Positions 3,345 through 26,515 of a stretch of DNA of 64,000 bases are shown one piece after another (positions within the stretch are counted from its first letter, which is position 1; each line of letters begins with the position of its first letter). The stretch is taken from the NCBI RefSeq assembly GCF_044647545.1, contig NZ_CP172818.1; one strand, 5' to 3'. The notes under the pieces were generated by a model. The model saw nothing but the letters and a program-made list of their open reading frames with translations. It was not told the origin of the DNA and did no database searches. This stretch comes from Escherichia coli. Lineage in GTDB: Bacteria > Pseudomonadota > Gammaproteobacteria > Enterobacterales > Enterobacteriaceae. Both the position numbers and the translations under genes were made by a program.

Positions 3345-3420
3345 ATGTGCTGGTTTCCGGTAAACAGATGTGCGCTCATTCTCGTACTTATCCCGGTTAA
3401 GTCAATACGACAGCAAGCAC

Positions 3421-3449: not shown

Positions 3450-3474
3450 TTATCTTATAACCATTCAGACATGG

Positions 3475-5010: not shown

Positions 5011-5165
5011 ATTATCCCCCTAAAACGGTATTCCTGTCGGAACCGCACCTGTTTTGTTCTGAAGCGTATTCAGAACAATATTTTCCGTTGCTAATGCCAG
5101 TGAACAGACTTTGGAAATTGTCCCGAAACGGGTGTGTTTCGGGACACCGTTACCGTTAAACGTTA

Positions 5166-6566
5166 TCAGGTATGTTTAAAGCTGTTCTGCTGGGCAATAC
5201 CCTGCAGTTTCGGGTGATCGCTGAGATATTTCAGGGAGGCTTTGTAGTCTTCCAGCAACAGTTCAGCAAAGTCCATTTCGAAGCCGCGACGACACATAAT
5301 GCGCATCACCACGATGTCAGTGGCTTCACCGCCGAGAGTGAAGGCCGGAACCTGCCAGCCGCGCAGACGCAGACGTTCAGAGAGGTCGTAGAGGGTGTAT
5401 CCCGGATCTTCACCATCTTTCAGTTTGAAGCAAACCGCTGGGATGCCTTCGTCCGGGCGACCGGTACAGATGAACTCATACGGCCCCAGTTTGGCGATTT
5501 CATCCGCCAGATAGGCAGCAACCTGGTAGGAAGCGTTCTGTACTTTGGTATAGCCTTCACGACCGAGGCGCAGGAATTCATAGTACTGTGCAATCACCTG
5601 ACCCGCCGGGCGGGAGAAGTTGATGGCGAAAGTCCCAATCTGACCACCGAGATAGTCAACGTTGAACACCAGTTCCTGCGGCAGCGCTTCTTCATCACGC
5701 CAGATAACCCAGCCGCAGCCTAGCGGAGCCAGACCGAATTTATGGCCTGAAGCACTGATCGATTTCACACGCGGCAGGCGGAAGTCCCAGACGATATCCG
5801 GGGCGACGAACGGTGCCAGGAAGCCACCGCTGGCGGCGTCGATGTGCATGTCGATGTCGATACCGGTGTCGGCCTGGAATTTATCCAGCGCATCGTGCAG
5901 CGGCTGCGGGAACTCATAGTTACCGGTATAGGTCACGCCGAAAGTCGGCACCACGCCGATGGTATTTTCGTCGCAGGCTTCAATCATGCGTTTCGGGTCC
6001 ATAAACAACTGACCGGGGCGCATAGGGATCTCACGCAACTCCACATCCCAGTAGCGGGCGAATTTATGCCAGCAGATTTGTACCGGACCGCACACCAGGT
6101 TTGGTTTATCCGTTGGCTTACCTGCAGCTTCCATACGCTTGCGCCAACGCCATTTCATCGCCATCCCGCCAAGCATACAGGCCTCGGAAGAACCAATGGT
6201 GTTGGTGCCAACGGCCTGACCATTTTTCGGTGCAGGCGCATGCCACAGATCGGCAACCATGTTTACGCAACGCAGGTCGATGGCTGCAGATTGCGGATAT
6301 TCTTCTTTGTCGATCCAGTTTTTGTTAATGGATAAATCCATCAACTTGTGGACATTTTCGTCGTCCCAGGTCTGGCAGAAAGTGGCCAGGTTCTGACGAG
6401 CGTTGCCATCAAGATATAATTCGTCATTGATAATCTGAAATGCGACATCGTCGCGCATTTCGTGCAGCGGAAAACGTTTTGATTCTGCGATAGTGGAAAT
6501 AGACTTTGCACCAAAACGTGAATCGAGTAGTTCCGACCTTAAATCCGTTACTTGCTTCTTATCCAT
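5166..6566 (-). CDS. gadB: glutamate decarboxylase GadB, 466 aa
   Basis: ORF track gives 489 aa; trimmed to internal start [21 protein letters not shown] (466 aa) which matches the recalled GadB N-terminus; PLP-dependent decarboxylase motif [10 protein letters not shown] present. Confidence 0.9.
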
Positions 6567-6645
6567 TTTAAACTCCTTAAAATGATTGGATCGCATTAAA
6601 AAAGTAGGATTTATCGATAAAGTAAGCAAGTGCAAAGGACTCGTG

Positions 6646-6665
6646 TTTAAATAACAAAATCCTAA
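6646..6665 (-). promoter_or_regulatory. GAD box (GadE/GadX-GadW binding element) in gadB promoter
   Basis: Reverse complement of 6646-6665 is TTAGGATTTTGTTATTTAAA, the 20-bp GAD box consensus, about 80 nt upstream of the gadB start codon. Confidence 0.75.
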
Positions 6666-7173
6666 TGTTATTTATCGTGAGATATTGCGTGAATAATATT
6701 TTTTCATTGAAAAACAATATAGTAGGGAGCTATTGGGTGGTGGCAAGGTGTTTTATGCTGTTATTTTTATGTGCATTCTGTGCCTCCTGAATTATCACGT
6801 AAAAATCAGACCTTAAAATATCATTATTAGTACGCGGTTATTTACTTTGAACGCATTTATAAAATTATTACATAAAAATAGCGAATATTGCTAAAATCCC
6901 CGCCAACGATGTGTTGACGGGGCTGTGATTATTTTGGCAATAATACCCCGGCATAAGTATTTACCGGATGAGAAAGATATTGTTTAACGCGTTAAGGGGG
7001 GGGGGAGTGAATGTCATTCTCGAGCTCTTTATTCGCTGCCGCTCCGCAAACAGTAACCTTCCACCTTCTCCCATCCACCACCGGCCCCTCGCCTCGTAGC
7101 CGGCCGGCGAGCCCCGGCAGCCAGCATGGTCTCTGCCGGGGTACGGGTGTGGTCAGGCCCCTACTGCCCTCTG

Positions 7174-7364
<191 letters not shown>

Positions 7365-7439
7365 TCAGGCAGGGGGGGGAAACCGAGTAATAATGGGATA
7401 TAAGGTAATGGTGAAAAAAGGATAAACGAAAAATAAGAA

Positions 7440-9150
7440 AGTCTATGTATGAATACGCGCTGGAACCCATGCGGTGGCCTGCCTGCAATTTGCTAAATGT
7501 TGGCTTCAGTTAACTTTATCGTTGAGTAGATAATGTAATTGTCTTGGATAGAAAAATGTGATGTAAATGTCTATATTAAAAAGATTTTAGGATGAAAATA
7601 AACTTGATGATTAAAAAAGGCTAAAAGTAAACTAGAATGAAAATTACCAATGTAACATATAAAAATGGTGAATAAACTGATAAGGTGGGAGGAAGAAAAA
7701 TAATGATAGGAATGTGCTATTCATAAATAATATCGGGTCGGTGAGAATTGATAAATTATATGTATCCGATAGATAAAAAATGATAAACTAAGAGGGTAAT
7801 GGAATTAGTATAATGAGGTAAGTAAAATAATTGATATGATCAGAGTGATGGCTGCTATCATGAAAAGTAGTTACTGAATTATGGTCTGTAAGGTATGTAG
7901 CTCTGGGGGCATAAATTAAATAAAAGAAACTATGTTCTGAGAAAAGAAATTATTATTAATAAAATGCATTGTGTAATGATAAAAATAGTTTTTGGCCTGC
8001 ATAGCGTTGTTGATAGTGAATAATTTAGGAAAAAATAGGCCAGCAGAGTGGGTTCCCTGGTCGCGCTGTCTTTGTTTGATGAACTCTTTCAGAGTGCTGT
8101 CATCATCATTTTTCATGAGTAAACTGCGACTCTTTTCAAGGTAAAAACAGTAATCAATTTGAGATTAATTGAAAACTGGAGGGCTGGCTCCTGCATTCTG
8201 CTCCTGCCGGGCTTTTTGATTTGTTAATTTTGATTTATTGTAGGGTGGCTGGCTGCTGTGATAAACTCTTTAAGCTTGCATCTTTTAACGACCTGCGGAT
8301 TGGGGGGCAAGGTTATTTTTGCTTAGATCGTGTTGTAGATAACTGATGTTTTCTACTGTATAGAAAGGAATAATCGTTTTACGTATAGAATTGGCTTAAG
8401 TCTGTGTTGGGGTTATGCGGGTAATTTGACTGATGGGAAAAATTTGGGTAATTTCAGAATGGAATATTTCTGTAAACAGTGAGAATAAGAGGTTATCAGG
8501 TAGATTTTTATGTGGCTGCTTTTTTATCTGCAACAGGGCAGCAAGGAAACGCCATCAGCTTAAGGTCTTTGGAATGCTGATATGGCTGATAAGAGCTGTA
8601 GGTAAAATCATTGGGAAATAGCTGTATAATTACGGGTGAAGTCACAATAAAATTGGGGTGTGAGTGCGGATAGGTCTGACTTTAAGCCTGCCGAGCGGCA
8701 AGGACATCGATAACGCACATTATGGAGGTAAAGAGAATAATTGTATGATACTGTCCGTCAGTTGTCGAGAATGCGTAACCTGATAAGAATAGGAAGCGTA
8801 GTAGTTACTTACTCAGATAATGCTTTGATTGATCAGGTGAGGATTATTTGGCAGGTCGGAGCTTTAAGCAGGTAGCTTGGCTGGTGTGTGGCGATAGTGT
8901 TGGTGTGCGTGGGGTTGAAGTTGGGTGCCTTGGGGTGTGTTGGTGGGGGTGTCTTGGAAGTAAGAGAGAAAAAGTGGGTGAGTGAAGTAGTAAAAGAGAA
9001 GAGAAGAAGGGAAAAAGTAAAGGTTAAGTAATTGAAAAAATGAATAAAATGAGAAAATGGAATTGAGATAAAATAATATGAAAGGTTATGAAATGATAAA
9101 TATGTGATGAATGTATTATTTATTAATAAATATATCGCCTAAAAACAACG
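7440..9150. other. cytosine-depleted, AT-rich low-complexity non-coding block
   Basis: Plus strand is almost entirely G/A/T, with G/T-rich and G/A-rich stretches; no credible ORF, RBS or RNA gene; occupies the position of pqqL-yddB-yddA-ydeM-ydeN in K-12. Confidence 0.8.
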
Positions 9151-9203
9151 CGGGGCAGGGAATGACTGCATTTAATTTTTAGTAGGGTGCGTGGTGACTC
9201 TCG

Positions 9204-9974
9204 TTAGCAAATAATCAATCCTAAAGCACTCATCGTGTTGTCCGTGTTCATACCGGTGTGCCTTTGACAACGGTACTCCTTAGAAACTCTCTTTGGACTG
9301 TTGCCGAAATGTTTGCGGAACGCATAAATAAAATAAGATGTACTCGCATAACCACATTGTTCGGCAATTTTATTGACTGAACCTTCTACGCGTATCAAAT
9401 TTTTTGCGTGCTGCATTCTGGCATCTAAAAGAATCTGTGAGAATGTCGTTTGCTCTTGCTTTAGTTTTTTCTTCAACAGGCTTTCACTGATGTACAGGCA
9501 GTCACAAATATCTTTCAGCTTCCATGGGTGCGCCAGCTTCATGTTGACAATATTTCTCACTTTCCCGGAAACGGATAGCACACCGTTAGTTAATAGTGTA
9601 ATGAAACCTTTGCATGCGGCAAAAATAGACAGGCAAGAAAAAAGCAAAAGTTCTGAAAAATTATGATGATTGCGTTCTTCCGAGTTGAGATAAGCAATCA
9701 TTTCATTAAGCAATCCAGTCGGTACATTTGAAGCACGTAAAAACTTCGCAGGAACAGGCACCGTCACTGTCTGAATGTTAGTGCATTGTAGATATTTTTT
9801 AATGGTATTTTCATTAAATCCGATTTCTTTGAAATGCCGCTCATAAGGTTCAAAATGCGTACGAACAGCGTTATCTACCATCAGGATCTCGCCGTCAGAG
9901 AAGGCGTAATCTTTATCTAAAATGTTAGCGTTGAAGGCATGATGAATAAATATAACAGAACAAACGAGCGACAT
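9204..9974 (-). CDS. ydeO: AraC-family acid-resistance transcriptional regulator YdeO
   Basis: 256-aa ORF with C-terminal AraC-type HTH; directly downstream of safA and ydeP as in the K-12 safA-ydeO operon. Confidence 0.8.
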   Translation of the reverse strand: MSLVCSVIFIHHAFNANILDKDYAFSDGEILMVDNAVRTHFEPYERHFKEIGFNENTIKKYLQCTNIQTVTVPVPAKFLRASNVPTGLLNEMIAYLNSEERNHHNFSELLLFSCLSIFAACKGFITLLTNGVLSVSGKVRNIVNMKLAHPWKLKDICDCLYISESLLKKKLKQEQTTFSQILLDARMQHAKNLIRVEGSVNKIAEQCGYASTSYFIYAFRKHFGNSPKRVSKEYRCQRHTGMNTDNTMSALGLIIC

Positions 9975-10048
9975 TTTATCTCCTTAAAACAATAAAGTTT
10001 TTATCGATACTTTTTTAACATTTCATATTTATAATTTGCTGTTTATTT

Positions 10049-10246
10049 TCAGTCTTGCAAACTATTGATAATGAAATGTGTAAGATCTCTTGCAATGCGA
10101 CCCATTTCTGAAATACCCAGCTGATCAATTGCCGAAAAAATGGCTATCAACGTAAGTGTCAGTAATAAGACAACCACAATTACAGACATGATTTCTTTAT
10201 AGTTGTCTCTTTGCGTGATTTTGTTTTTCACTGTGGTCGCATGCAT
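10049..10246 (-). CDS. safA: two-component connector membrane protein SafA, 65 aa
   Basis: 65-aa ORF with single hydrophobic segment (VIVVVLLLTLTLIAIFSAI), located between ydeP and ydeO. Confidence 0.8.
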   Translation of the reverse strand: MHATTVKNKITQRDNYKEIMSVIVVVLLLTLTLIAIFSAIDQLGISEMGRIARDLTHFIINSLQD

Positions 10247-10493
10247 TTCAAATATGTTTATTTAGCGGATAACGTTAAAAATCGTTAATCAGTATGCTTA
10301 ATATAACAGGCTGGAAAAAAGAGGAAATAGGACTGGTGCTTCAGTACTGAGCGGAGTTTCTTACAGCTGTAGGCAGAAGTTTATATCTTATAGTATGTAG
10401 TCTAATTTAATCCATGTGAGCAAATTGCGCGATAATAGTCAATGAGGAATTCTTCTGCTGTGCGGATGACAGCAGAAGAAATGAGAAGAGGCA

Positions 10494-12773
10494 TTAATTT
10501 GATGGTTCTAATTCAACCGGAATACTTTTATAGCCAGGAATGCCACTTAATGGATCGTGGTTATCAAGTGTTAGCATGTGATTCGATTCTGGAAAATAGG
10601 TCACCAGTGAGCGGTCAGCCATAGGGTAAATGACCACTTTTAATCTATCCATGCGTCGTGAGCTACGTTTACCGTCTGGCGTGAGTGCAATAAGATTAAC
10701 TCTTTCGCCGTTTTTTACACGGCAAATTTTAGCTTGTTTAGCACTCATAAAGACCACATCTCGTTGACCGAATACACCTCGATAGCGATCATCCATACCA
10801 TAAATCGTCGTGTTGTACTGATCGTGGCTGCGTACTGTCGCCATGACCAGTTTACTGTTAAACGCTGAAGAGGGATCTTCTAACAGCCCTTTGCTGGTAA
10901 TGAAATTAGCCTTACCTGACGGCGTCATCCAGCGCCTTTCAGCAGCTGCGTTTATCAGGTGAAAACCACCAGGATGACGGATGCGCTGGTTATAGTCGGC
11001 AAACTCTGGCAGCACAGCTTCAATGTCATTGCGAATGCGATCATAATCTTCCACCAGATACTCCCAGGCTACCACGCTCTGGGGTAGTGCTGCCTGCGCG
11101 ATTCCCGCGACCACTGCACACTCTGATTTCAGCATTACACCGGCGGGTTTTAACACACCACGCGAGGCATGAATCATCGACATTGAATCTTCAACGGTTA
11201 CCGCCTGCGCACCGCTTTTTTGCATGTCAATCTCGCTACGTCCCAGAACCGGCAGAATATAGCTATGCCGTGCGGTCAGCAGATGAGAGCGGTTAAGCTT
11301 AGTGGCTACGTGTACAGCCAAATCTAATTGCGTTAACGGTACAGCGCTCGCTTCCCGATCTGGCATTGCCAGCGCAAAGTTGCCCCCCATGCAGATCAAT
11401 GCTCGAGCTTGCCCCGTACATATTGCTTGCATGCTGGCAATTGCAGCATGTCCAGGTGCATGAGGTGGGGTGAAACCATAGCGCTCACCCAGGCGAGCCA
11501 GAAACTCTGCAGACGGTTTCTCGGTGATACCGACGGTTCGGTCGCCCTGTACATTAGAGTGACCTCGTAGTGGGCAGATGCCCGCACCAGGCTTGCCAAT
11601 GTTACCTTTCATCAACAGCAGATTGACCAGTTGCTGTACATTCTGGGTACCATGTTCGTGCTGAGTGATCCCCATTCCGTAACAGATAATGGTGCGGTCG
11701 GCAGCGGCATATGCATCAGCCAGTTCGGCGATTTGAGTCTGACTTAGTCCAGAAATACGCTCGATATCTTTCCACTCGGAATTGAGAACGTCACGGCGTA
11801 GCTCGTCAAAGCCGACGGTATGCGTTTGAATAAATTCGTCATCCAGCAATGAGGGCCGACCTGCGGCGCTTGCAGCATCATCGCGCTCAATTAACAGGCG
11901 CATCATCCCCTTGAGCAACGCCATATCACCACCAATGCGCACGTTGTAGTAGGCACTGGCCAACTGAGTCTCAGAGTTCGTCAGCATTTCAAACGGGTTT
12001 TGCGGTGCGGTAAATCGCTCCAGGCCACGTTCCTGTAGAGGATTGATGGCGATCATTTTCGCTCCCCGTTTCACTAAAGCGCGCAACGAACTCAGCATGC
12101 GAGGGTGGTTTGTACCAGGGTTATGCCCAATGCAAATGACTAAATCGCATTTCTCAAAGTCTTCCAGCAACACGGTCCCTTTACCTACACCGATACTCGC
12201 TGCCAAACCCACACTGGTCGGTTCATGGCACATGTTGGAGCAGTCGGGGAAGTTATTGCTCCCGTATTCACGGGCAAAAAGCTGATAAAGAAAGGCAGCT
12301 TCATTGGAAGTGCGGCCCGAAGTATAGAATTCAACCTGATTGGGATCACTATAGCTTTGAAGGCGTTCGCCAATTTCGTCGAAAGCTTGTTGCCAGCTTA
12401 ATGGCTTGTAACAGTCGCTGACGGCATCATATTTCAAAGGCTGGGTGAGACGCCCCGCAGCCTCAAGCTCGTGGTCTCCCCAGGTAAGTAATGATTGAAC
12501 CGTATTCTCAGCAAAGAAAGAGGCGTTTACCTGCTTATCCGTGACTTCCCAGGCGATTGCTTTTGCGCCGTTTTCACAAATGTCGAATGACGCACTGTGC
12601 TTAGGATCTGGCCATGCACAACCCGGACAGTCAAAGCCCTCTGGCTTATTCATGTCAAACATGGCAATAACATCCTGGCGTATATCCATCTGCTTACGTA
12701 CTGCATTCGCTACGGATTTAACAGCACCCCAACCACCGGCAGCCCCCTGGTAGGATTCAATTTTTTTCTTCAT
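10494..12773 (-). CDS. ydeP: molybdopterin oxidoreductase YdeP (formate-dehydrogenase-like), 759 aa
   Basis: 759-aa ORF with N-terminal Cys cluster (CPGCAWPDP...C...C) typical of molybdopterin oxidoreductases; synteny. Confidence 0.9.
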
Positions 12774-13111
12774 CTACTTATCCTGTGTGGAAATGAATTA
12801 TTAGGATTTGAAATAGCGATGATGCACAGTATATACAAAGGGATTATCGTCAATATGGATATATAAGAGTAGGGGACTACTCTCTTTCTATTTTTAATCT
12901 ATTATCGTTAAATAATAGAATGGTATAAATACGATAAGTTAAGCATCATCTCTCATAGTGTTTAAATTAACATGTTTTTCAATATAAAAAATAAGACTCT
13001 GGCGTTAATTGTGCGCGGATTTTCTTACAGGTGTAGGATAATAGCCTTCACAAAATAATTATCCGCGCAATTTTCGCGAATGGAGCGCATAGACTAAGGT
13101 CAAAATCACAA

Positions 13112-14026
13112 TTATTCATAGATAAAAGTGACACCAATGACTGACTGGACGGTTCCGGCTGCAACCTTGTTTCCTGTTTGTCCATAGGTTGCGCTTAAAC
13201 CCAGAGGTACTTTGCTTTTATTTACTGTCCCCAGGGAGACATTTTCTCCCGTTGCCAGTATTTTTCCATTACGTATCAGAGAGACACCCACTCCCGATGC
13301 TTTTGTTGCATCAGGTGCCGTGTTAGCAAACACTTGTCGGGCACTGTCAGTGGTGGCACCCGAAAGATAAAATGAGAGCTTTTGTTCGCTTGAGCAATAT
13401 ACGCCAAGGGGTATTTCTGCGCTTCCAGGAAAGTCCGGGAGATCCACGGTGACATTACGACTATCAACAGTGCAGCCGCCTGTTGGCATAACAACACTGT
13501 TATTTGAAATAATATTCCACGTAAAATTACGCGGATTTCCGCTTCCTAACGTGGCAATTTTATACATATGAATACGGGCAATAACTTCCCCGGCTTTTAT
13601 GACAACTCCACCGGCCGCCCCGACTGGGGTAATATAGAGTTTTAACGGTAATGGCATCGGTGTCTTATCACCAATATCCAATACGTTGGTATTTGTCGTC
13701 AACGGGAAGGGGTAGGTCACATTATTCCAGTACAGCGATCCCTTATATGACTGTAGAGAGCCTGCGAAAGCTGAGCCTTGTACCAGGTTTATATGATCAG
13801 TGTCGTACCAGCCGCCGTAATCATTCCAGCAACTTATATGCTGAGACAAGTCTACAACCAGATTCTGGCCCGGCTGTATTACAGGGTCGAGATTAACATA
13901 AACAGAGGTTGTACCAGCTCCAATACTTGACCCGCCATCGACATTACAACTGAAGGCAAAAACTTTACCTGCCATTAATAGAAAATAAATACCGAACAGG
14001 ACCTTTATACTGATTGTTTTACCCAT
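13112..14026 (-). CDS. ydeQ: fimbrial adhesin-like protein YdeQ (FimH-like), 304 aa
   Basis: Signal peptide, fimbrial subunit C-terminal beta-strand (VTFIYE), two-domain size typical of tip adhesins. Confidence 0.8.
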
Positions 14027-14085
14027 GATATATCCTAAGGTTAAAAAATTGATTTAAAAAGAAGGCTAAGAAAATCGAATCGACG

Positions 14086-14589
14086 TTATTGCCAGGTGTA
14101 GATCACATTGATTAGCGCCTCGATCGTTCCCTGGCTTGCGTTTCCATTCACCGTGATAGCTCTTGCCTTAAGTGGAAACTGTGCATTACGAGTGATCTCA
14201 TCAACAATAACCGTTTTGCTATCGCCATTTTTTAACGTCGCATCCTGGTCATCCCTCAGCTCTATCTGAATATTTTCGGCAGTACCTTCATTTTTGTAAT
14301 AACCCGTATTGTCAGTTGAACCTGTCACGATTGCCGTCACTGCACTTGTTTCAATCGGACAATCGGTTAATGACAAAGTAATATTGTGCCAGCCAGATGC
14401 AGAACCAGGTTGTTGCAGATTGCGTGTATAAAGATCCCCGAGATTAACGTTAGCTTCTTTGGTTTGAATAGTGCATGGTTTAGCGACTACCCGACCATTA
14501 ACAGTGATAGTGACATCGGCGGCCTGGAGAGTTGCTGTGAATAATGTGCAAAACGTAGCTAACAGGAACCTCTTGTGAAGTCTTTTCAT
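14086..14589 (-). CDS. ydeR: fimbrial minor subunit YdeR, 167 aa
   Basis: Signal peptide plus fimbrial subunit fold length; synteny in ydeQRST cluster. Confidence 0.8.
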   Translation of the reverse strand: MKRLHKRFLLATFCTLFTATLQAADVTITVNGRVVAKPCTIQTKEANVNLGDLYTRNLQQPGSASGWHNITLSLTDCPIETSAVTAIVTGSTDNTGYYKNEGTAENIQIELRDDQDATLKNGDSKTVIVDEITRNAQFPLKARAITVNGNASQGTIEALINVIYTWQ

Positions 14590-14601
14590 ATCTGACTCTG
14601 A

Positions 14602-15132
14602 TTATTGAAATTCAAGGGTAAAGGTTGCCGAAGCGCTCACCAGTCCAGGATTGACGGACTTCTGAGTTGACTTCAAACGAGCGGAGTAAGGCAAAATATT
14701 GTTCTGTTCTGGTACCAATGGGATCCACTGCATCCCGGCATGAAGGTCATTCAATTTCACCGGACGCATATTTCCGTCCAGTATTTCTATACCCAAACCG
14801 GAGGCCGTATTGCTTCCTTCATCCAGTTTCAACAGAGTATTATTTTCTGCATCCTCAATACCGTTAAATGCAACCCGAACTCCCGTTGTCCCTTTGCTGC
14901 ATTCACTTAATGTAATCTGAAAAGGGACGGCTGGACTTGTGCTACCGGTCGTTGGAAATTGTCTGGCACTGTTTTTTTGGAGATCTACGGTAAAATTAAG
15001 CGAATCCGATGAGACTGTGCAGCCATAATCGAGGACGCGCCCGCTAATTTTAATAACGCTATCTGCGGATAAAGCAGAATAGGTGGTTAACCCCAGACAT
15101 AAACCGAGGAAAATAATGTTATTGTATTTCAT
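14602..15132 (-). CDS. ydeS: fimbrial subunit YdeS, 176 aa
   Basis: Signal peptide, conserved Cys pair, C-terminal TFTLEFQ-type strand; synteny. Confidence 0.8.
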   Translation of the reverse strand: MKYNNIIFLGLCLGLTTYSALSADSVIKISGRVLDYGCTVSSDSLNFTVDLQKNSARQFPTTGSTSPAVPFQITLSECSKGTTGVRVAFNGIEDAENNTLLKLDEGSNTASGLGIEILDGNMRPVKLNDLHAGMQWIPLVPEQNNILPYSARLKSTQKSVNPGLVSASATFTLEFQ

Positions 15133-15145
15133 AATCTATTGTTCC

Positions 15146-16294
15146 TTAGCGACAGATTGCTGTCTGCTGGTTCAGTAAGGTACCAGGAGAAACTTCAGGA
15201 AGCTTGTACTCGACAATACAGTTTGAGTTTTTATCTTTGCCCCATGAAACCTGTAATTTCCCTGACTGTGGAAGTCCAGTCAGATAAACCTGACCGTTTT
15301 CCGCGACAATGCTGCCATTTTTATTCTGTCCATGTGTGACAATTGCACCGAATGGAACGCTCTTATTACCGTACTTCAACGTCATTAATACTTTCCCGCC
15401 GATTTGTGCATTAAATGTTGCTCTGGCAATAGCACCGTGAGTTGGGATGACAGTGACAACGGTTTCATCCAGTTCAACATTATCTGCAAGGGAATTCGCG
15501 TTAAGAGCGACACGATTTTCTCTATATTCTGTCGCAAATGGTAATATGGCATAGCCACGCCAGTCGGTATGAATACCGGTCTGGTTCTCTATTTTGACAT
15601 TATCAGCGCCAGGAGCCTTAACCAGAACCATTGTGTCGCCCAGCGGCTGTCCAAAGGTGATGCCATCAGCATGAGCAATAATGCCACCACTCATTCCGTA
15701 ATAAATCTGGCTGCTGTCACCACTCCGACTGTAACCGATATTCGTATTACCGTAAGCTCCACGATAATTAAGAGAACTGTAACCACTGGTGCCAGACGAT
15801 GTATTACCCCCGTGGGTGTTACCGACCTGAACACTATAATTCAGGTTATTATCCGGCAGCAGAGTGCCATAAACTCCCGATAGATTGGTCATGCCGCCTT
15901 TCAAATCGTTTGACATACTGTAACTGGCGTTTGAGTTACGAAATGTCGACTGACTGTCTGTACGCATCCAATGACTGAAGGGAACATTAAGCGTAAAAGC
16001 AAGTAAATGATCCCGATCGTTTTGCCATATATTATTGGAATAGCTGTAATTCAGCGAAGTCGTAATATCACTAAACGGCACATTTAATCCAAATGATATT
16101 TGCTGGTCGCTGCGTGACGTGTTCCAGTAACTTTGGCGACTGGCACTGAAAAATGTCGTACCGTAATTTCCAAGCTGCTGAGAGATGCTTATTTGTTCCT
16201 GACCACGCTTACTGTAGAACAGATTAAAATAATCAATAAATTGTGTCTGCTCATTGCTGTCTCCGGTAGGAGGCTTGACGGTGTAACCACTCAT
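15146..16294 (-). pseudogene. ydeT: fimbrial usher C-terminal fragment (ydeT)
   Basis: 382-aa ORF resembling only the C-terminal third of an outer-membrane usher (full ushers are about 850 aa); no chaperone gene and no usher N-terminus upstream. Confidence 0.7.
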
Positions 16295-16546
16295 TCGACT
16301 GTAGGCACTGTCGGATAAGTTATAAAAACCTTGCGTAGAATAGCGATATCCTGCGACCTGGATATTGGTTCCACAACAAGTTTATTGCAGCACTTGTTGA
16401 AGAGAGTATTTGCAAAGACATTTTATGTCGCTAAATAACATGACGATTTCATTATGCATGTTATTTATAAACCGTGACTAAACAGAATATTATTGCGAAC
16501 AAGGGAAGTGTCAGGAAAGGTCAAGAGCGACCAATGGCTTATATGG

Positions 16547-16975
16547 CTATAAATCATTAGCTATAGTTAATGTTTGCCTGGTGTAACTAACACGGAATTG
16601 CTCTAAACAGATAAGTGCAGGGTTTATTAAAGCTGACCGACAGACTTTCTTAACCTGGTAATATCTCTCAGGTGACTCTCCAAACATCCGCGAATATTCC
16701 CGACAGAAATGGGATAAGCTTTCGTAACCGACAGCATAGGCTGCAGTGGTGACATCGTAATGTTCATTCAGTATCAGTCGCCTGGCTTCATTGAGGCGTA
16801 GCCATTTCTGATACCGGAGTGGACTCATTCCCGCAAGCTGTCTGAAGTGTTGATGGAAAGGGGGGCGTTCATTTGCACGCGGTTTGCCAGCCTGACTCTT
16901 CAACGCAGGGAAGATGCGGCAAACGGCAAACCTGCATACCAGCCAGCCTATATCCGGTATGCACAGGCCAATCAT
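16547..16975 (-). pseudogene. yneL: AraC-family regulator fragment (yneL)
   Basis: ORF contains only an AraC-type HTH region (…RYQKWLRLNEARRLI…GYESLSHFCREYSRMFGESP…) without a sensor domain; position matches K-12 yneL. Confidence 0.6.
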
Positions 16976-17159
16976 GAAAGAGGAGAGGCTTTATGTTCTG
17001 GAACCCTGAAGTAATAACGACGACCGGAAAATCGCTTCGCATCACTCAAATCCAATTTAACATAATATACATTATGCGCACCAACATAAACCAAGGAAGA
17101 ATCCAGTCGTTGGCGGTCATGATTGTCCTGCTCATTAACAACGACCAAAACCCCATATC

Positions 17160-18482
17160 TTACTTAATACCGTATTCTCGGCTTAACCGGTCGTGCAACC
17201 TCAACACATTGGTTTCAACTGCCGTCACCACGTTCTCCGGAAAATCTGTCGGTAATGAAGTCTTCACGTTATCCAGTGCTGCTGGAATCATTCTGGCAAA
17301 GTCACTCAGGATTTCATGCATCTGCACTTCCGGGAATCTCAGCACCTTTGCTGTCGCCAAAAAATGTCGCGGATAAATTTTATCGATTGCCGTTTTTTTG
17401 CCTTTGGATGCGTTAAGCCCCATTGCCAGTTTGAGATCGCTGATGTGTATTCCCGTACCGCCAAGGACCGGAAATGCTGAAATGATGTCGTAAAATGGCG
17501 TGAGTCGATAACTGCCGCCAGCCTGAATAAATACGGAGAAGTTTTTTGCATGACCGTCCGTTGCGCCAATCAACCACTGGAAGACCTGGAATTTCATAAA
17601 ATCATAGCGATCTTTCAGCGCCTCGCTGGACCCCATCAAAAAAGCCATGATCCGCGCGATGCCTGGGCCTCCATCTGATTCATATTTCACCGATGAAGGT
17701 AAACCGAATGTCTGACACATATCCTCCTGTGGCAAGCGAAGTAAAACCGTTCGCTCAGCATTCCAACGCCTGTCAAAACGTTCGACCGCTAACGCGCGCA
17801 CATTTCCCGCTTTAATGATTTCTGCGTCCGGAACATTCAACCCAAGTTCTTTCGCCAGCAGCAGACAGTAATACTCATTATCAACGCTTTGGCTGAGATC
17901 GAGCGTCGCATTGGGCTGCCTGATTTCGCCAATCGGTAATTTAATGATGTGCGTCGTCGGCGTTATTCCTTTCGGAATGCACCAGTCATTGCCTATTCTG
18001 AGCAGTGCTGTCTTCTCCTGTGCGCCAGCAACCGAGATGCGAAAGTCATTTTCTTCTCTAATCATGCCTAGCGGGATATCTGCTTTATAAGCCGTTAATA
18101 CTTCTTCAAGTCTGGCTTCAGTAAGCTTTTCCCATGCCATTATCGGATGCGTTACGGTTTCGTCTTCGGGTATTAACGTCACGGCACCAACGCTGTCTCG
18201 CCCTATTTCTGACAATAAATCAAACGGTTGTCTGGATTTGGCATGATAACGTTTAACGATCCGGTCACGTACAATCGGGCTATCGGGTAACAGGTTATCG
18301 AAGAAGTTAAATACGGCATCAGAGGTGATATTCCCCCTCTGCAATGGCAGCGAAAGTGACAACGGTCTGGCATAACGGCTTGCTAACCACTCCGGTGCAT
18401 ACTTAAAGGTGTGCGCGCCGTTGGCTAACTTCGTTAACTCGCCTACCCGCTGGTTGTTCATCCAAGTGACAAGTTTAGGCAT
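17160..18482 (-). CDS. hipA: HipA serine/threonine kinase toxin, 440 aa
   Basis: ORF track 459 aa; trimmed to MPKLVTWMNNQRVGELT start (440 aa) whose ATG overlaps the hipB stop by 1 nt. Confidence 0.9.
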   Translation of the reverse strand: MPKLVTWMNNQRVGELTKLANGAHTFKYAPEWLASRYARPLSLSLPLQRGNITSDAVFNFFDNLLPDSPIVRDRIVKRYHAKSRQPFDLLSEIGRDSVGAVTLIPEDETVTHPIMAWEKLTEARLEEVLTAYKADIPLGMIREENDFRISVAGAQEKTALLRIGNDWCIPKGITPTTHIIKLPIGEIRQPNATLDLSQSVDNEYYCLLLAKELGLNVPDAEIIKAGNVRALAVERFDRRWNAERTVLLRLPQEDMCQTFGLPSSVKYESDGGPGIARIMAFLMGSSEALKDRYDFMKFQVFQWLIGATDGHAKNFSVFIQAGGSYRLTPFYDIISAFPVLGGTGIHISDLKLAMGLNASKGKKTAIDKIYPRHFLATAKVLRFPEVQMHEILSDFARMIPAALDNVKTSLPTDFPENVVTAVETNVLRLHDRLSREYGIK

Positions 18483-18748
18483 TACCACTCCAGATTTTGC
18501 TGTTCTGTTGATTCTGGCGAGGCATTTTTCGCGTCGCATAGCGTCATTGAGAGTTCAAGCGACTGTAAAATCTTAAAAAATGTCGTGAGCGTGGTATTGT
18601 CAGGGTTGTTTTCGAAATTGGAAATCGTCGCCTGCTTAATACCAATTTTTTTCGCCAGCTCGCTCTGCGTCCAGCCATTTTGCTGGCGAACCAGTTTCAT
18701 TGCATTCGCCAATTGCGTTGGGCTATAGATCTTCTGAAAGCTCATCAT
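18482..18748 (-). CDS. hipB: HipB antitoxin, HTH-XRE DNA-binding protein, 88 aa
   Basis: Trimmed to MMSFQKIYSPTQLANAMKLVRQQNGWTQSELAKKIGIKQATISNFENN... (88 aa); helix-turn-helix motif; immediately upstream of hipA. Confidence 0.9.
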   Translation of the reverse strand: MMSFQKIYSPTQLANAMKLVRQQNGWTQSELAKKIGIKQATISNFENNPDNTTLTTFFKILQSLELSMTLCDAKNASPESTEQQNLEW

Positions 18749-18959
18749 GTCATACGTCCACAGCAAGTTTATCCGCTTAAGGGGATATTATAAGTTTTAT
18801 CCTTTAGTGAGGATAAGTCAATCTGGAAACACATCTTATCCGCTCTACGGGATAAACGCTGCGATATCCGCGATCGCGGATAAAAAGGAGGATTTAAAAG
18901 TCGTTTGAAGTCGGCAATATTAAGCCGCATGCATCTTCGACATGCGGCTTATACGGTTT

Positions 18960-21900
18960 ACCAGCTATATTTCACACCCAGCATGCCCTGAGTATCGCTA
19001 TAGCCTTTATCACCTAGTTGCACACCGACATTCCCCCACAGGCTAAGGTTGTTATTTACTTTCGCCTCAACCCCGGTACGTACTTCACCGAGATTACGCG
19101 CACCATCACGGCTTACGGTTTGACCATTCATCTTCACGGCGTAGACTTTGCTGTTGTTGATCCAGTTCGCTTCAATGTAAGGCTGGAACTCACGCTGTTT
19201 ACCATTGTCACGCTGGTGTAGTCGTCAGCAGAACGGTTATCGGAACTGACGCTGTTATCAAACCAGTTATACAGCGCCCAGCTGTCAACATAAGCGCCGG
19301 TCTTATTCGCATCGTTCTGATACCAGGTCGCGTACAGTCCTGCGCTGTAACCGCTGATGCGCCCATCCGATTTATAACCCACATGATTACTCTGAGTATT
19401 ACTGTGCTGATTGGCATAGCCTGCCATGACGCCGAGATGCCAGCGATCCTGCGCGTTGCTACTCCACTGCGCCAAATCGCCGCCCTTGCCATATTAATGG
19501 CAGAGTCGGAACCGAAAGCAATTTCCCCCCCACGATATCCGTCGTACCCTGATACGCCGCGGAATCGTTGTTAAGAGTCAGGATCCCGGTACCCAGTTTT
19601 GTCACATCACCGCTACCGCTGATACTGTGCGTCATCGCCCAGCTACGCTCAGTGGAGATGGTGAGCAGGCCATTATTGATAACGGAAGCATCACCCAGGT
19701 TTTTCTGCTCGTTGACGCTGAGCGCGCTGCCTGTATCAATGTTGAATTGCCCCACAAAGCGGCTATTATCGCCATCCAGCTCTACATCTGTCCTGGCGGT
19801 TGCGCTCACGATACCCTTCCCGCTTATGCCATTGCGCAGTTCGCCAGTCACGTTTTTTAGCGTTAACAGACCGTTATTGGCAATATTTCCGCTGCCTAAC
19901 CCCTGCGTATTATCGAGGCTGACTTCCGCATTTGGGCTAATGCTGGTTAACGCATTGTAGCGTGCATTAAGCCCCTCGATAGCCAGCGTTCCCCCTGTAA
20001 CATTCAGGTTTCCGCCACCTGTCAGTTCACCCTGACTGATCCCACCTTTATTTACCGTCAGCGCCCCCTCTTTGAACAAAACAGTCGAACCCATCTGCCC
20101 GGTGAATGTCTCTACCGTCTGCGTCGATCCATTAAGATCGACGATGGCCGCGTTGCTGATGTTCAGTTCCCGGGTGTTGCCAAGTGCACCATCCGCATCG
20201 GTACGTAATGTCCCCATCTGAACGTAGGTTGCCCCCTGATAGTCGTTCTGAGCGTTGGAAAGCGAAACCTGTCGCACCGTATTGATTGCCAGATCCCCTT
20301 CACCACCGATTTTTGCCGACATATCGGCCGTTGCGCCATAGGCTCCGCCATGTTCGGCTAACGTCAGCTTTTGCCCTCCATGGATGTTCAGCGCTTTCAG
20401 CCCATAGTTAACGTACAAACCATCACCTGGTGCGGTCGTGAGGCGGAATCCATAATCACCCTCGGCGACCACCGTTCCGTTTTGCGCAATGTGTAACGTT
20501 TTGTCCGCTTCCACCTCGTCGCCCTGTAAATCACGTAACGTTAATGAGCCACCCGACCCAATAACCGTTTGCGCCTTCACCAGTTGAACGCCGACATGGC
20601 TATCATCGTGTTCCAGCAAATTGAGCGTCGTCAGAGGGTTATTCGCCATGGGATCATTCCACGGTTTAGGCACGTCGATAAGCACGTCGCCCGTCCCGTT
20701 TACCTTATAGTTACGGCCTTTCCAGGTGTAGTCACTCGCGCCGACAACCAGCGTATCGACGCTGATATATCCCTCTGCAAGCGTCGCAGCAGGAATATCC
20801 GTATCGAAAATGAGCGTACCGCCATTCATGGCCAGTCCACCAATGGATTGCTCTCCCACGTTTACCGATGTGGTATTTTCAATGTCAGACTGCAACATCG
20901 CGTGAGTAAGCGCAGCGGTGTTGTCGCGTTCCAGAGTGAAGGTACTGTCTTTCAGTTGGGCAACACCGGCGAATTCAGTCCCTGTTGCATGGGTAAAGCC
21001 AAACATCTTGTCGGAGGATGACAGCTGCACTCGCATCAAGCCATCGCCTTTGAGCGCATTGGTCAGCGTGTAATCTCCTGCGCTGTTCGTTGATGCGAGA
21101 ATGTCGAGCGTACCGGGGCTTGCAATGGTGACTTCACTCGAACCCATGCCTGTTACCCCATCTGCCGTATGTGACGCAATAGTCAGGAGGCCGTCATTGA
21201 CCAGCGTTTTACCGCTATAAGTATTCCCTGCATTGAACACCGTATGGCCTGCATCATGCATCACTTTTCCGTCTTTATCGTCACCCGTAATCAGCATATC
21301 GACCTGGTAGCCGGCATCACTGTTATTGGTATGATTAAAGACAAAAACGCCTTCGCCAAGACCAAACTCCACTTTCGTCGCATTGGTAATAAACCCGGCA
21401 TCTGCCGCTACCTCACCGTGAGCAGCACCAATGTTTAGCGTTCCTACAGCAGGCTCAAAAACACCTAAGTAAACTTCTCCACCTTCGACATTCAGCGTGC
21501 CGTTATTCGTCAGGGTTAACGTACCTGTGCCAGTCGTCCCTACGTTCATATTGAATGTTTCAAGAAGAGAGTTCTGCCCATCCACCCGCACGTCGCCCTT
21601 ACTTTTGTCATTCAGAGCTATCTGTGTATCACGCGCTTTAACTATACCTCCGGTGGTAATATTCAGTTCACCCGTGCCTAATACACCGACCTGTAGCAAT
21701 TGGGCGTTAGTAGATGACGTTTTTAAATTCCAGAGACTATGCGTTGAAATATTAACTATCCCCTTACCGGAGGCATTTCCTCCGATAAATCCATAGCCCG
21801 TTGAATTAAGGGTGGCACCATTACTGACATTTACGATGCCGCTACCAAAATTACCGACATTGATACCTACAGTATCGAACGATGATGTCGCATCCATCAG

Positions 21901-23361
21901 GTTCAGTGTGCCGATACCGCTTGCTTTATCGCCCAAAAAAGTAATATTTTGCGATACGAACTTACCGCCATCGCTGATATTGAGGTTTCCGACGCCCGCA
22001 ACACCAATAGTGGTATAGACATTCTTATTGACCTCCCACATCCCCCCCGTGGTGATGCTAACCTTCCCGACGCCGGTTTCTCCATAACCGAGTGAGCTTC
22101 CTCCGTTGCTGACAACAAGCCCCTCATTACTGATATTCATTTCGCCGTGGCCGTCATAACCAAGATTAGTTCCGAGATTAGTGATAACGGAGTTCTTATC
22201 CTTAACAGTAATGTTGCCTGTGCCTGTTTCTTTCATCCCCGCAGTGATAATTCCCGAATCGACTTTGCCTTCACTAGAGACATTAAGTTCACCGTCGCCA
22301 GCATCACCGATATAGATATAGCGGAAAGCTTCGCCCGTTCCGAGGAAATTCCAATGCCCTTTATCGGTCACGTTGACGACACCGTGGGAACCGTCCTGAA
22401 CGCCCACCAATGAATATTCTTTGTTATTAATCAGTCCATTATTGGAAATATTGACTTTGCCATTACCGAAATATCCATTATAGAGTCTGCGTACCGTAAT
22501 GACAGAGTCTTGATCCTGCACATTCAGGGTTCCGATACCGGTGGCATTGCCACCGATAATCGTATTTTCAGCCGTAATTAGCCCACCCTCGCGAATAGTC
22601 GCTTCCCCAGTTCCTTGATTACCAATTTGAAATTCAATTGAGGAATCGTTATTTTTCATTAGCCACTCACCGCCCTTTTCAACGACAACCTGGCCATTAC
22701 TGCCCGCCTGATAGCCTAAAATGGCGACGATTGAACTCGTGACGTAACCCTTATCCGTAATATTTAATGAGCCCGTACCGTAACTCCCTATTTCGAATAA
22801 TTCGGTCGTCAAAACCGAGTCCTCTTCCTCAACATTAACCGTCCCGACGCCTGCAGCTTGAGTACCTAATCTTAAATAGCCTCCATCGACGTGACCCTTC
22901 TGTTTAATATTCAGCGTCCCCGTTCCGGATTGACCCACATTTAAAGGCCTTGCATTATTTCCGCTATCATACAATCGCCAGGTGCCACCCAAAACATTAA
23001 CGGTGCCCTCTGAGTCCTCATTAGCGCCAATGACGCTGGTAGTAATAGTGGTTAAGGAGGCATTACCGCCAGCCAAAATATTAAGCACTCCAGTGCCATA
23101 CCAGCCAACCAGGTAGGCATCATAAGCAACATTAGTATCAATATTGGTAATCTGATCATTATCAACTTCCAGACTTGCACCAGACGCTGAACCGCTTAGT
23201 GCCAGCAAAACACCCAGCGTCAATCTACTGAGTTTCGTTGTCAGTCCAGAGGATTTACGCAAATTAACCGTCGATGTTTTACCTACCCTGCGAGTTAATT
23301 CCGAGCAGACCTGAAATGCCTGTAGGGTGCAATTCCATATCACGCGATAGATTCTATTCAT
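18960..23361 (-). pseudogene. yneO: AIDA-I-like autotransporter adhesin, frameshifted (yneO/ydeK)
   Basis: 1300-aa passenger ORF with repetitive G/N/T-rich beta-helix repeats, plus two further ORF fragments (19134-19475, 19208-19492) carrying beta-barrel motifs; C-terminus ends ...VKYSW at 18960; at least two frame changes between 19134 and 19500. Confidence 0.8.
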
Positions 23362-23890
23362 ATAAACGCTCCATATACAAACAATACAGCCACGAAAGAG
23401 ATGAGTCGTCAGACATTAAAAATGAAACTTATTAAATTGTCAGAGGTCTGTATTGAGTGTTGGTTGGAGGTGGGAAGGTGTCAATTTGGCTAATTTGCTA
23501 ATACTTTCGAATTGATAGATTAAAAATTGCATAGTTCTTATTTTATTTAAAAATGAACCATGAGTTATTGTTGCTTAATAAGAAAAATATTTCTTTCAAT
23601 AAGAAAATTACCATCATCATATTTAACAAAGAATAGCACTAATTGCTAAAAAAGAACTCTATTAAAACTCTTTTTCATTCATTTATGCCTTTAGGAATAT
23701 TCGCTATAAAATAAGGGTTATGCTTAATGTTTTAAGAAAAATAGCAATTTTCCCTTGAATATAGTACTGGCGATGGAACGATGAATCTGCAAGCTGGCAT
23801 TTAACAAGCCAGTTCTAAAAGAAGGGAAATAAGAATAACTATACTCAAAAACTAACAGCCACGGTCATCATGATGTGGCTGTCAATGAAA

Positions 23891-25483
23891 CTATAACCCA
23901 GGCGCTTTCCATAACGACGTCGTCAGTCCATGATCAACCAGCCCCAGCTGATCCTGATAAACTGCCTGCCACTTATCGCGTGAATCCTGATAAAGTTCAT
24001 GCTTTTCTGGGTCTGGTGTGTGCGTCCGTTCCCAGCGAACCAGGCGTTCTCCGGTTTCTGCCATTGATGAAAAAATTCCGGCACCGACGCCAGCTGCAAT
24101 GGCACATCCTAATGCAGTGGCTTCTTTGACCACCGGAATATTGACGGGTAATCCCGAGACATCAGCGAGAATTTGACTCCATAATTTCCCTTTTGAACCT
24201 CCGCCTGCAAAGACTAGAGATGTGGGATGAATATTCGAAAAATCAGCAATTTGCTGCAAGTTACACGCTGATACAATCGCCGCATTTTCTTCCAGCGCAC
24301 GGAACAATGTCGCTTTGTTACATTTATCCGGGTCAATGGACAAGTTAATAAAGGAAGGCGCAGCGTGATACCAGGTTTTAAAGCGCATTCTGTCGGAGAA
24401 TATCGGCATTACGCCCCACGACCCAGGCGGCACACGACTTGCCATCTCTTCAAGCAGCGTATAGGTGTCGATGCCTAAACGTTCGGCAATCAGTTTTTCT
24501 TCGGCACAGAAAGCATCGCGGAACCAGCGCATGGTGAGTCCGGTAAAAAAGCTTATAGATTCAGCTTGTACCATGCCAGGAATAACATGGGGATTAACGC
24601 GCACGTTCATTTCTGGGTCTGTCACCGGCGCGGCTAAGTTTACAACTTGCTGCCAGAATGTACCGCCAAGAACCGCGGTTTGTGCCGGACGGACAACGCC
24701 TAACCCCAGGCAACCAAGCTGCACGTCACCTCCTCCAACGACCACCGGAGTGCCCGCCTTCAGACCGCAGAGTTCCGCCGCTTGTGAACTTACCACGCCC
24801 AGCAATGTGCCGGTTTCTTTGACAGGAGAAAGAATATCGGCCCGCAGTCCGGCCATATCCAGCAATGCAGGTTTCCAGTCACGGGTGGTTAGATCAAGAA
24901 GTCCCGTGGTGCCAGCGTTAGAGGGATCCACCGCCAGTTCGCCGCTGAGCATATAGGCCAGCCAGTCGCTGATCATGGTGATGGTCGACGCCTGTCGGTA
25001 GATATCGGAACGATGGTGCGCCAGCCAAAGTAATCTGGGGATGGCGCTTAAAGCCAGCGTTTGCCCGGTCGCTCGATAAACTTTGTTTTCAAAGGTATTG
25101 TTGTGCAGTTCTTTAAGTTCGCTAACTTCGCGCGCCGCTCTGGCATCCACATTGGCGCAGGCCCAGATCGGTGTTCCATCATTGTTATATAAAACAATGC
25201 CTTCACGCATCGAACATGCCGAAACGGCAGCGATATACTCCGGGGCTATGCCGGCGTTGTGCAGCGCCTGGCGCATACACTCACACGCCAGTTGCCAGTT
25301 TTTGTTGAGATCAAATTCCATAGAACCAGGAACGTCCGGTACTGCCAGGTGCCGCCACTCCGCCTGTCTCACGGCTATTTGATTGCCTTCCAGGTCGAAT
25401 ATCACAGCCCGAATACTTCCGGTACCTGCATCCAGCGCCATCAGGTAATACTTTGATTCTGAAGGGGTAAAGAGTCGAGCCAT
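23891..25483 (-). CDS. lsrK: autoinducer-2 kinase LsrK, 530 aa
   Basis: FGGY-family carbohydrate kinase-like 530-aa ORF adjacent to and co-oriented with lsrR, divergent from lsrACDBFG. Confidence 0.9.
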
Positions 25484-25561
25484 TAGATTATCCTCGGCTT
25501 ATGCGTTCTGTCTGTTCCTCTATACGTTCTCCATCATTCCCGGTAATAAGGTCATGCAAAT

Positions 25562-26515
25562 TTAACTACGTAAAATCGCCGCTGCTGTATCCTGATCGGT
25601 AACCAGTGCGTTGATATAACCGCCTTTCATTGCAGCGGCAATTGCTTCGGCTTTATTTTCTCCCCCTGCCACGCCAACCCGGACGGGTATGGTCTTCAGC
25701 GCGCTTAAAGGTAAGCCAATCAGTTCGTTATGTATTTTAATATCCGTGACAACGTCACCTTTTGCATCAAAAAAGTAGCCTAAAATGTCGCCAACCGCCC
25801 CTTTTCGACCAATCATTAACTGTTCGCCCTGGCTGATATAGCCGGAGCGAATGATTGTTGCGTCGTCTTGTTGACTCACAGCCCCAATGCCGACAATCGC
25901 CACATCCGCTGCTTGCGCGGCTAGCAGAACATCTTTGACGCAATTTTCATTTTTTAACGTACGGGCAATGTCAGCGGAGGATGCCCGCAACGGAGCCGGA
26001 ATAATATTCACACTGCACGCCGCGTTAAGCTGCCCGATACCCGTCATATAAGAACCGACTCCACCGGAGAGCGTGACCAGGCGAATTTGCTGTGACGAAA
26101 TAAAACCACTTAAGCGTTGCAGCGTATTCATGGTTGCCTCGCCAAAACCAATCGCCAGCATCTGTTGTGGTTGAAGTAAACTCATCAACATATGCGCCGC
26201 GCCTATCCCTAGTCGCCCGCCGACATCAGCATCCGCAAGCCCTGGGATCACCCGGACATGTTGCAGCGAAAACTGACGACGTAATTGTGTTTCATATTCC
26301 AGACAGCCTTCAAAGCGAGAATTAATCTGTACGCGAATAATGCCGGATTGATGCCCTTTCTCCAGTAATCGCGACACTTTCAAACGGGTCAGGCCGAGAC
26401 GATCGCTGATCTCACTCTGGGTCAGCCCGTCATGGTAGTAAAACCACGCAATCCGCGCGACCTGTTCTTCTTCACACATTCCCTGTTCTGAAATTACCGA
26501 ATCGTTGATTGTCAT
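25562..26515 (-). CDS. lsrR: lsr operon repressor LsrR (SorC family), 317 aa
   Basis: N-terminal HTH and SorC-type sugar-phosphate-binding domain; divergent from lsrA. Confidence 0.9.

Follow-up and report, generated by a model that had tools for sequence, protein, structure and literature searches.

Can a fimbrial locus that has kept the genes of its pilus tip and has lost those of its assembly machinery still make a pilus, and how did it come to this state? The question is raised by positions 13112-16975 of a 64,000-nucleotide (nt) stretch of Escherichia coli DNA (contig NZ_CP172818.1), which at its full length is called the window here. An original prediction, made from the sequence alone, had described these positions as a degenerate chaperone-usher locus with three intact subunit or adhesin genes (ydeQ, ydeR and ydeS), a C-terminal usher fragment (ydeT), no chaperone gene and a fragmentary AraC-type regulator (yneL). 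We conclude that the locus is very probably what is left of the 3' part of the F9 (Fml, Yde) operon, a type-1-like chaperone-usher operon, as it also occurs in K-12 and in most phylogroup A strains, and that one deletion produced this state. The anatomy of the locus, its breakpoints, the absence of the missing parts, the match to the promoter and the spread of the junction in the population were observed directly. The truncation of F9 is ordinary and already known as the K-12-type ydeQRST/yneL pseudo-operon. Disruption of F9 in K-12 and phylogroup A has been described, with about 40% of the sequenced strains called disrupted (PMC3966885), and ydeQRST has been equated with F9 (PMC2648988); the name Yde does not come up in the discussion of Wurpel 2013. 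Beyond the original prediction, we add the F9/Fml identity of the genes, the retained f9 promoter, the definition of the deletion at the level of the base and the finding that the truncation of yneL is unrelated to the deletion.

The tip genes are complete and belong to the F9 operon

The three genes that had been predicted to be intact are so. Their open reading frames (ORFs) were found at the predicted positions at full length, with matches in Pfam, in NCBIfam and among solved structures. YdeQ matched the Pfam family FimH_man-bind (E=6e-78). Its top solved structure was the lectin domain of the F9 adhesin FmlH (6aow, E=1.8e-107), whereas the match to FimH was far weaker (4e-81). YdeQ is the orthologue of FmlH, the adhesin that marks the F9/Fml/Yde fimbriae of the gamma-1 clade. 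The ydeQ DNA is 100% identical to the allele of sequence type 648 (ST648), and the translation retains L32, V33 and F63, the toggle residues named in PMC8064603.

YdeR passed the NCBIfam cut-off for FimG (256 vs 220 bits) and aligned end to end with the solved FimG 9me4 (E=6e-60); the alignment contains the cleavage point of the signal peptide as well as the donor-strand extension. This extension reads ADVTITVNGRVVAKPC in YdeR and ADVTITVNGKVVAKPC in FimG, so that one position differs. YdeS passed the cut-off for FimF (239 vs 200 bits) and aligned over its entire length with the solved FimF 6e14 (E=4e-39), again with the cleavage point and the donor-strand extension. The mature PDB chains begin at ORF residues 23 (YdeS), 24 (YdeR) and 25 (YdeQ). 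The tip adaptors and the two-domain adhesin are therefore all present at full length with their signal peptides.

The chromosomal position between ydeP and hipBA, together with the mapped f9 promoter, is that of the F9/Fml/Yde operon. In K-12 MG1655, ydeQ-ydeR-ydeS-ydeT (b1502-b1505) and the pseudogene yneL (b1506) stand in the same order between the same neighbours; b1505 has the same 382-residue ydeT ORF and the same junction, and the helix-turn-helix fragment of yneL lies at the same place. The gene names in the original prediction are those of K-12, although the sequence is an ST648-type haplotype in an assembly of doubtful quality. It diverges from MG1655 by about 2.3% at the nucleotide level, carries ST648-type alleles and an ST648-type 125-bp block in yneL, and has two extra frameshifts in yneL.

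Intact F9/Fml operons (CFT073 c1931-c1936, F9 of O157:H7 and fml of UTI89) have the same promoter, leader start and flanking genes as the window, and they share with it the orthologous usher C-terminus, two minor subunits and the FmlH adhesin. Of the genes of these operons, those of the major subunit and the chaperone are missing from the window, as are residues 1-475 of the usher. The closest paralogue is the type 1 fimbrial operon (fimAICDFGH), in which FimF, FimG and FimH correspond to YdeS, YdeR and YdeQ. It occupies a different locus, and its fimB/fimE invertible switch is absent from the locus in the window. The adhesins differ in specificity, with FmlH recognising galactosides and type 1 fimbriae mannose (PMC3966885, PMC8064603).

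Table 1. Coordinates of the features in and around the fimbrial locus (positions of the window)
Feature	Position	Strand	Description
ydeP	10494-12773	-	Downstream neighbour of ydeQ
Terminator-like hairpin and T-run	13061..13081	-	Just 3' of the ydeQ stop; consensus scan, pattern match only
ydeQ (fmlH/f9 adhesin)	13112-14026	-	304 residues, full length; 24-residue signal peptide, lectin domain, pilin domain
ydeR (FimG-like tip subunit)	14086-14589	-	167 residues, full length; signal peptide and donor-strand N-terminal extension
ydeS (FimF-like adaptor subunit)	14602-15132	-	176 residues, full length
ydeT' (3' part of the F9 usher gene)	15146-16372	-	Residues 476-883 of 883; longest ATG ORF 15146-16294, 382 residues
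Deletion junction	16372..16373		...GGTTCC joined to ACAACAAG...; 1-bp microhomology
f9 leader, first ~72 nt	16373..16444	-	Now fused to usher codon 476
f9 promoter	16451..16480	-	-35 TAGTCA (16480-16475), 18-bp spacer, -10 CATAAT (16456-16451)
yneL (AraC-family regulator fragment)	16547..16975	-	142-residue ORF; helix-turn-helix only in residues 40-105 (nt ~16661-16858)
hipA/hipB	17160-18748	-	Upstream neighbours of the fimbrial locus
hipBA tract	17213..18898	-	100% identical to K-12 MG1655 and phylogroup A

Chaperone, rod subunit and half of the usher are missing

Only a C-terminal fragment of the usher had been predicted, and this was found, but the fragment does not end at 16294 with the ATG-initiated ORF. 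The usher homology stays in frame beyond this ORF up to 16372 and comprises 408 codons with 99.8% identity to the 883-residue usher. The 1,227 bp of ydeT' keep 46% of the usher, and the N-terminal 54% are lost, with the signal peptide, the N-terminal domain and the first half of the barrel. The fragment covers positions 259-549 of the Pfam Usher profile and PapC_C and leaves PapC_N unmatched. In the NCBIfam usher model it aligns to positions 496-877 of 877 and reaches 418 bits vs a cut-off of 995. A full-length outer-membrane usher has a signal peptide, an N-terminal domain, a 24-strand barrel with a plug and two C-terminal domains, and ydeT' falls short of this. RefSeq annotates the K-12-type usher fragment as 'incomplete; missing N-terminus'.

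In the loci that keep this part of the operon, the gene of a 236-residue chaperone lies between the usher and the major subunit. When the whole 64 kb were searched with tblastn, the F9 chaperone gave no match (best stray E=0.34), in agreement with the predicted absence of a chaperone gene. The F9 major subunit of 187 residues gave no match either, and the full usher found nothing beyond residues 476-883. The interval 16295-16546 and the adjacent DNA had been singled out as the place where an intact chaperone gene or usher N-terminus might still lie; tblastn found neither, nor any remnant of them in 16295-16546. This interval is accounted for by usher codons 476-501 (16295-16372) and by the non-coding f9 leader and promoter (16373-16546).

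Pilus assembly requires a periplasmic chaperone for the folding of the subunits, a complete usher for their polymerisation and secretion, and a rod subunit. Compared with a functional chaperone-usher operon, the locus fails in three features, the PapD-like chaperone, the full usher and the major (rod) subunit. Because all three are absent from the window, no F9 pilus can be assembled from this locus alone, and the tblastn results bear out what the original prediction had expected. Its list of missing parts named the chaperone and the usher N-terminus correctly and omitted the loss of the major-subunit gene.

One deletion fused the f9 leader to the usher gene

The comparison with fuller F9 operons, which had been suggested as a check, defined a single deletion of about 3.28 kb. 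The breakpoints were set against four loci that retain usher and chaperone (L001, L003, L005 and L036). The window is collinear with the fuller loci up to 16372, and homology restarts at 16372/16373, upstream of the major-subunit gene. Measured against an operon free of insertion sequences (IS), that is, after subtraction of the IS2 copy of the ST648 reference, the deletion has a size of 3,281 bp. It took away usher codons 1-475, the genes of the chaperone and the major subunit, and 179 nt at the distal end of the leader. One C at the junction is common to both parental sequences and its assignment is ambiguous. Apart from this 1 bp of microhomology, no repeats or recombinase-like sites were seen at the breakpoints. 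Judged from the alignments, a single illegitimate deletion appears to have joined the f9 leader at about +72 to usher codon 476.

The window aligns contiguously across 16372 with L002, L007 and MG1655, and the junction is identical to the base. The window thus carries the deletion allele of K-12 and phylogroup A, in which GGTTCC is directly followed by ACAACAAG and codon 476 is joined to leader position +72. With a 260-bp probe centred on the junction, the allele was detected in 1,373 of 5,426 complete E. coli genomes; the count includes genomes with the probe covered in one place at 80% or more, and at least two of the 1,373 carry instead another variant, in two pieces. A further 23 carriers, all of them metagenome contigs, were recovered with an exact-pattern scan for the junction.

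Other disrupted f9 alleles concern the same operon and have lesions different from that of the window. These are an IS2 in the major subunit gene (ST648), an internal usher deletion of 651 bp (L003), the loss of the chaperone (L004), the loss of the major-subunit gene (L001) and insertions of IS2 and IS4 (L006). Inactivation took many independent routes, and across E. coli lineages the F9 locus looks like a decay hotspot.

The remnant is still attached to the f9 promoter

In CFT073, the f9 transcription start was mapped by rapid amplification of cDNA 5' ends (5'-RACE) to 251 nt upstream of the major-subunit ATG, behind a -35 element TAGTCG, an 18-bp spacer and a -10 element CATAAT (PMC3966885). 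In L003, the same -10 hexamer stands exactly where a start 251 nt from the major-subunit ATG requires it. By its match to the mapped promoter, the start in the window would be near 16444. Both promoter hexamers are invariant among the seven aligned haplotypes. Since the right breakpoint is 179 nt upstream of the ATG and the start 251 nt, it is the leader at about +72 that is fused to usher codon 476. The remnant ydeT'-ydeS-ydeR-ydeQ is therefore not promoterless but still attached to the native f9 promoter, 72 nt upstream of the junction.

The f9 promoter region is bound by H-NS, and expression was observed at 20 C (PMC3966885). Transcription from this H-NS-repressed, low-temperature promoter would run into ydeT' and on through ydeSRQ. 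The hairpin behind ydeQ is a plausible candidate for the operon terminator; in the consensus scan, terminator-like sites were no commoner in the window than in shuffled sequence.

The truncation of yneL is independent of the F9 deletion

yneL had been predicted to be a fragment, which is what we found. It aligns to residues 204-271 of the 278 of RhaS and retains no more than the C-terminal ~70 residues of an AraC-family regulator. The match to HTH_18 covers positions 12-77 of 80, and the first helix-turn-helix is largely missing. The N-terminal domain for ligand binding and dimerisation (~150-200 residues) is lacking, as the match corresponds to positions ~204-271 of the AraC/XylS members of ~280 residues. 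In the ORF fragments upstream of yneL, no Pfam match to remnants of an AraC N-terminus was found. The predicted 142-residue ORF is inflated by two frameshifts that are specific to the window, a 2-bp deletion at ~16669-16670 and a 1-bp deletion at ~16860-16861, which fuse unrelated upstream sequence to yneL; the ST648 version is an ORF of 84 residues. Every record inspected annotates yneL as 'missing N-terminus' or as a pseudogene, the latter in K-12. Since yneL is also annotated as partial where the F9 usher and chaperone are retained, its truncation preceded the F9 deletion and is unconnected with it.

Within yneL, a 125-bp block at 16835-16959 is strongly diverged in all K-12-type junction carriers examined, to the extent that no BLAST alignment was obtained. 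The block is conserved among ST648, B1-type and other haplotypes.

Fate of the orphan subunits

Without their cognate chaperone, usher and rod, YdeS, YdeR and YdeQ would be degraded in the periplasm unless a paralogous chaperone-usher pair captures them. The nearest such pair is FimC/FimD of the type 1 pili. The original prediction had allowed export of the subunits only by a heterologous system, and for this there is published support. Full-length FmlH, given by the authors as UniProt P77588 and thus as the YdeQ of K-12, was expressed in K-12 with the fim cluster and an inactivated fimH and was functional in this type 1 background; its activating mutants V33E and F63E showed galactose-inhibitable binding to asialofetuin (PMC8064603).

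We think that the remnant is most likely a mostly silent and slowly decaying relic, with a small chance that its subunits are occasionally cross-loaded onto type 1 pili. It is improbable that the f9 promoter drives YdeS-YdeR-YdeQ in the cold or when H-NS repression is relieved and that FimC/FimD load this tip onto type 1 rods. If this were true, a quarter of the E. coli strains, among them K-12, would have hybrid pili whose tip binds galactosides, although their F9 assembly machinery is lost.

A further possibility is that the orphan tip module is kept by selection and is routinely loaded onto type 1 pili as a second, galactoside-binding tip. In keeping with this, the ydeS, ydeR and ydeQ ORFs are intact in every sampled carrier (K-12, two clinical strains and the metagenome contigs spanning each gene), the f9 promoter is retained upstream of the module and FmlH can be displayed by the Fim machinery (PMC8064603). 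However, the functionless usher fragment is equally free of stop codons and frameshifts over its 1,227 bp in the same carriers, and some carriers have suffered more deletions in ydeS-ydeT (L009, L023) or IS insertions. The usher fragment serves here as an internal neutral control for retained function of the subunit ORFs. With this useless fragment just as intact, selection cannot be read from the subunit ORFs; their intactness reflects the youth of the deletion relative to the rate of decay. We regard a selected second tip as unlikely and prefer the silent relic.

Several points weigh against the locus as an F9 remnant that its own promoter still serves and that type 1 pili may occasionally display. 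The ATG of ydeT' is preceded by no obvious Shine-Dalgarno sequence, and a stop codon lies just upstream in the same frame. Because of these two features, a poorly translated stretch of 1.3 kb could provoke Rho-dependent polarity and block the expression of ydeSRQ. The cross-assembly of FmlH was tested by plasmid expression in a fimH-null strain, where no FimH competes (PMC8064603). Finally, most of the sequence in this record may come from an organism other than the one to which the deletion belongs.

The deletion lies in a mosaic haplotype

The window is ~100% identical to the ST648 strain FDAARGOS_497 over 1-6989, ~9230-16372, 18828-37160 and 37487-59548. FDAARGOS_497 and the other inspected records that are most similar at the locus have the full 883-residue usher and the chaperone, and their major subunit is intact or split by IS2. 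The ST648 genomes inspected are also without hipBA; a 1.6-kb deletion, corresponding to 17221-18827 of the window, has left only the last ~60 bp of hipA. The window has two K-12-like features, the junction and the K-12-identical hipBA tract, from which other hipBA haplotypes differ by about 2.5%. The ~0.85 kb between them (16373-17212) are of the ST648 type, including the 125-bp block. The changes of haplotype are tight, no more than 17 bp from the junction in one case and 8 bp from the hipBA edge in the other. The flank markers of phylogroup A (T at 16389, A at 16417 and the diverged 125-bp block) are absent and the window carries ST648-type alleles there, whereas the flanks of all other junction carriers examined are of the phylogroup A type.

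Neither the 5,426 complete genomes nor the 23 metagenome contigs contained the combination of ST648 sequence with the K-12 junction and hipBA. Apart from the window, the mosaic was seen in a single record, CP092703.1 (L040, GCA_022488285.1; 4.68 Mb), which is present in GenBank only, outside the RefSeq-derived collection searched, and is not identical to the window. It was reached through its YdeQ allele; look-ups of exact proteins returned no record for the 382-residue YdeT or the 142-residue YneL of the window. It contains 39 scattered single-base Ns in 17 kb. Eight Ns outside the diverged block were checked, and four of them coincide with differences between K-12 and the window, vs ~2% expected by chance. 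CP092703.1 may itself be a template-guided consensus.

The window contains junk sequence in two places. A poly-G run of 188 nt at 7175-7362 is followed by C-depleted sequence that weakly matches ydeM (78% identity, 75 gap openings). The region 6989-9220, which also includes GC-rich junk, is artefactual, and its first ~2 kb (6989-9060) stand in place of ~10 kb with pqqL, yddB, yddA, ydeM and ydeN, a segment that is present in both K-12 and ST648 genomes. At 37375-37490, a poly-A run of 116 nt is preceded, from 37160 on, by dgcF sequence that progressively drops its Gs, and after the run the near-100% identity to ST648 restarts abruptly. The interval 37160-37490 is a second assembly or base-calling artefact. 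Small differences that are private to the window cluster at 15946-19485.

Origin of the mosaic

How did a K-12 deletion come to stand in ST648-like sequence? We think it probable that the F9 deletion and hipBA entered the record from a phylogroup A (K-12-like) template or contaminant during assembly and that the true strain is ST648-like with an intact usher and chaperone. This would account for a window that is nearly identical to ST648 and differs from the inspected ST648-like records in having lost the full usher and the chaperone and in having hipBA. It fits with the switches so close to both K-12-like features and the ST648-type stretch between them, with the absence of the combination from the genomes and contigs searched, and with the Ns of the sole similar record, half of those checked lying at K-12-differing sites. 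The homopolymer runs with flanks that drop one type of base, the local cluster of private differences and the Qin prophage region, which has the K-12 gene order and a best full-length identity of only 96%, also point to a faulty assembly. Against a template stands that the window follows the ST648 and not the K-12 structure at the 233-bp and 786-bp indels of yneO, at ydeJ and at the 125-bp diverged block, and that a real sub-lineage may be behind the record. A simple consensus on MG1655 was rejected as the complete explanation on the same kind of evidence, since the ST648 structure is found at the indels of yneO, ydeJ and dgcF. A de Bruijn-graph chimera of two strains was discarded on theoretical grounds: with the ST648 allele at 16389 just 17 bp away from the junction, real reads would have to contain a k-mer (k>=21) that spans the junction and has this allele.

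A natural micro-mosaic is a less probable candidate. In this case an ST648-like strain would have received the phylogroup A deletion allele and hipBA by homologous recombination in two very short patches, or a phylogroup A recipient would have taken up long ST648 DNA and retained its own structure at the two heterologies alone. Recombination is frequent in E. coli, and since large heterologies block branch migration, exchange points might come to lie at the edges of indels. A second record with the same structure exists, and some of the private differences (deletions of 4 bp and 2 bp) are unlike simple homopolymer errors. However, exchanges within 8 bp and 17 bp offer less homology than RecA-mediated exchange normally needs, and this would be required twice. 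The combination is also absent from all the complete genomes searched, CP092703.1 has its scattered Ns and a K-12-like size, and the window itself contains junk. That an identical deletion occurred a second time, in the ST648 haplotype, by a site-specific or otherwise constrained mechanism, is very improbable. It would explain an identical junction on two haplotypes ~2% apart, but the breakpoints offer neither repeats nor recombinase-like sites beyond the single shared base, the K-12-identical hipBA 0.85 kb away would be left unexplained, and the F9 lesions of other strains (IS2, internal usher deletion, loss of chaperone or fimA) are different and unrelated. We therefore favour the assembly template or contaminant as the source of the deletion in this record. 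The record is a warning case, as conclusions on the fimbrial repertoire or on hipBA of the strain cannot be trusted without the reads.

Neighbouring regions of the window

At the right end, positions 59548-64000 contain a Qin-like cryptic prophage with the K-12 gene order (tfaQ, stfQ, nohA, ynfO, ydfO, gnsB, cspI). This segment differs from FDAARGOS_497 and is only 92-97% identical to K-12, and its best full-length identity among the 5,426 genomes was that to BS-01. BS-01 was considered as a sister assembly and was rejected, because it has the ordinary phylogroup A type at the F9 locus.

From 18958 to 23361 and beyond, an autotransporter of the ECSE_1600 family (yneO/ydeK in K-12) is split into several ORFs. 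The region is without the 233-bp and 786-bp segments of phylogroup A strains and without the 4-bp CTAG/TAGC filler that ST648 has at 19484.

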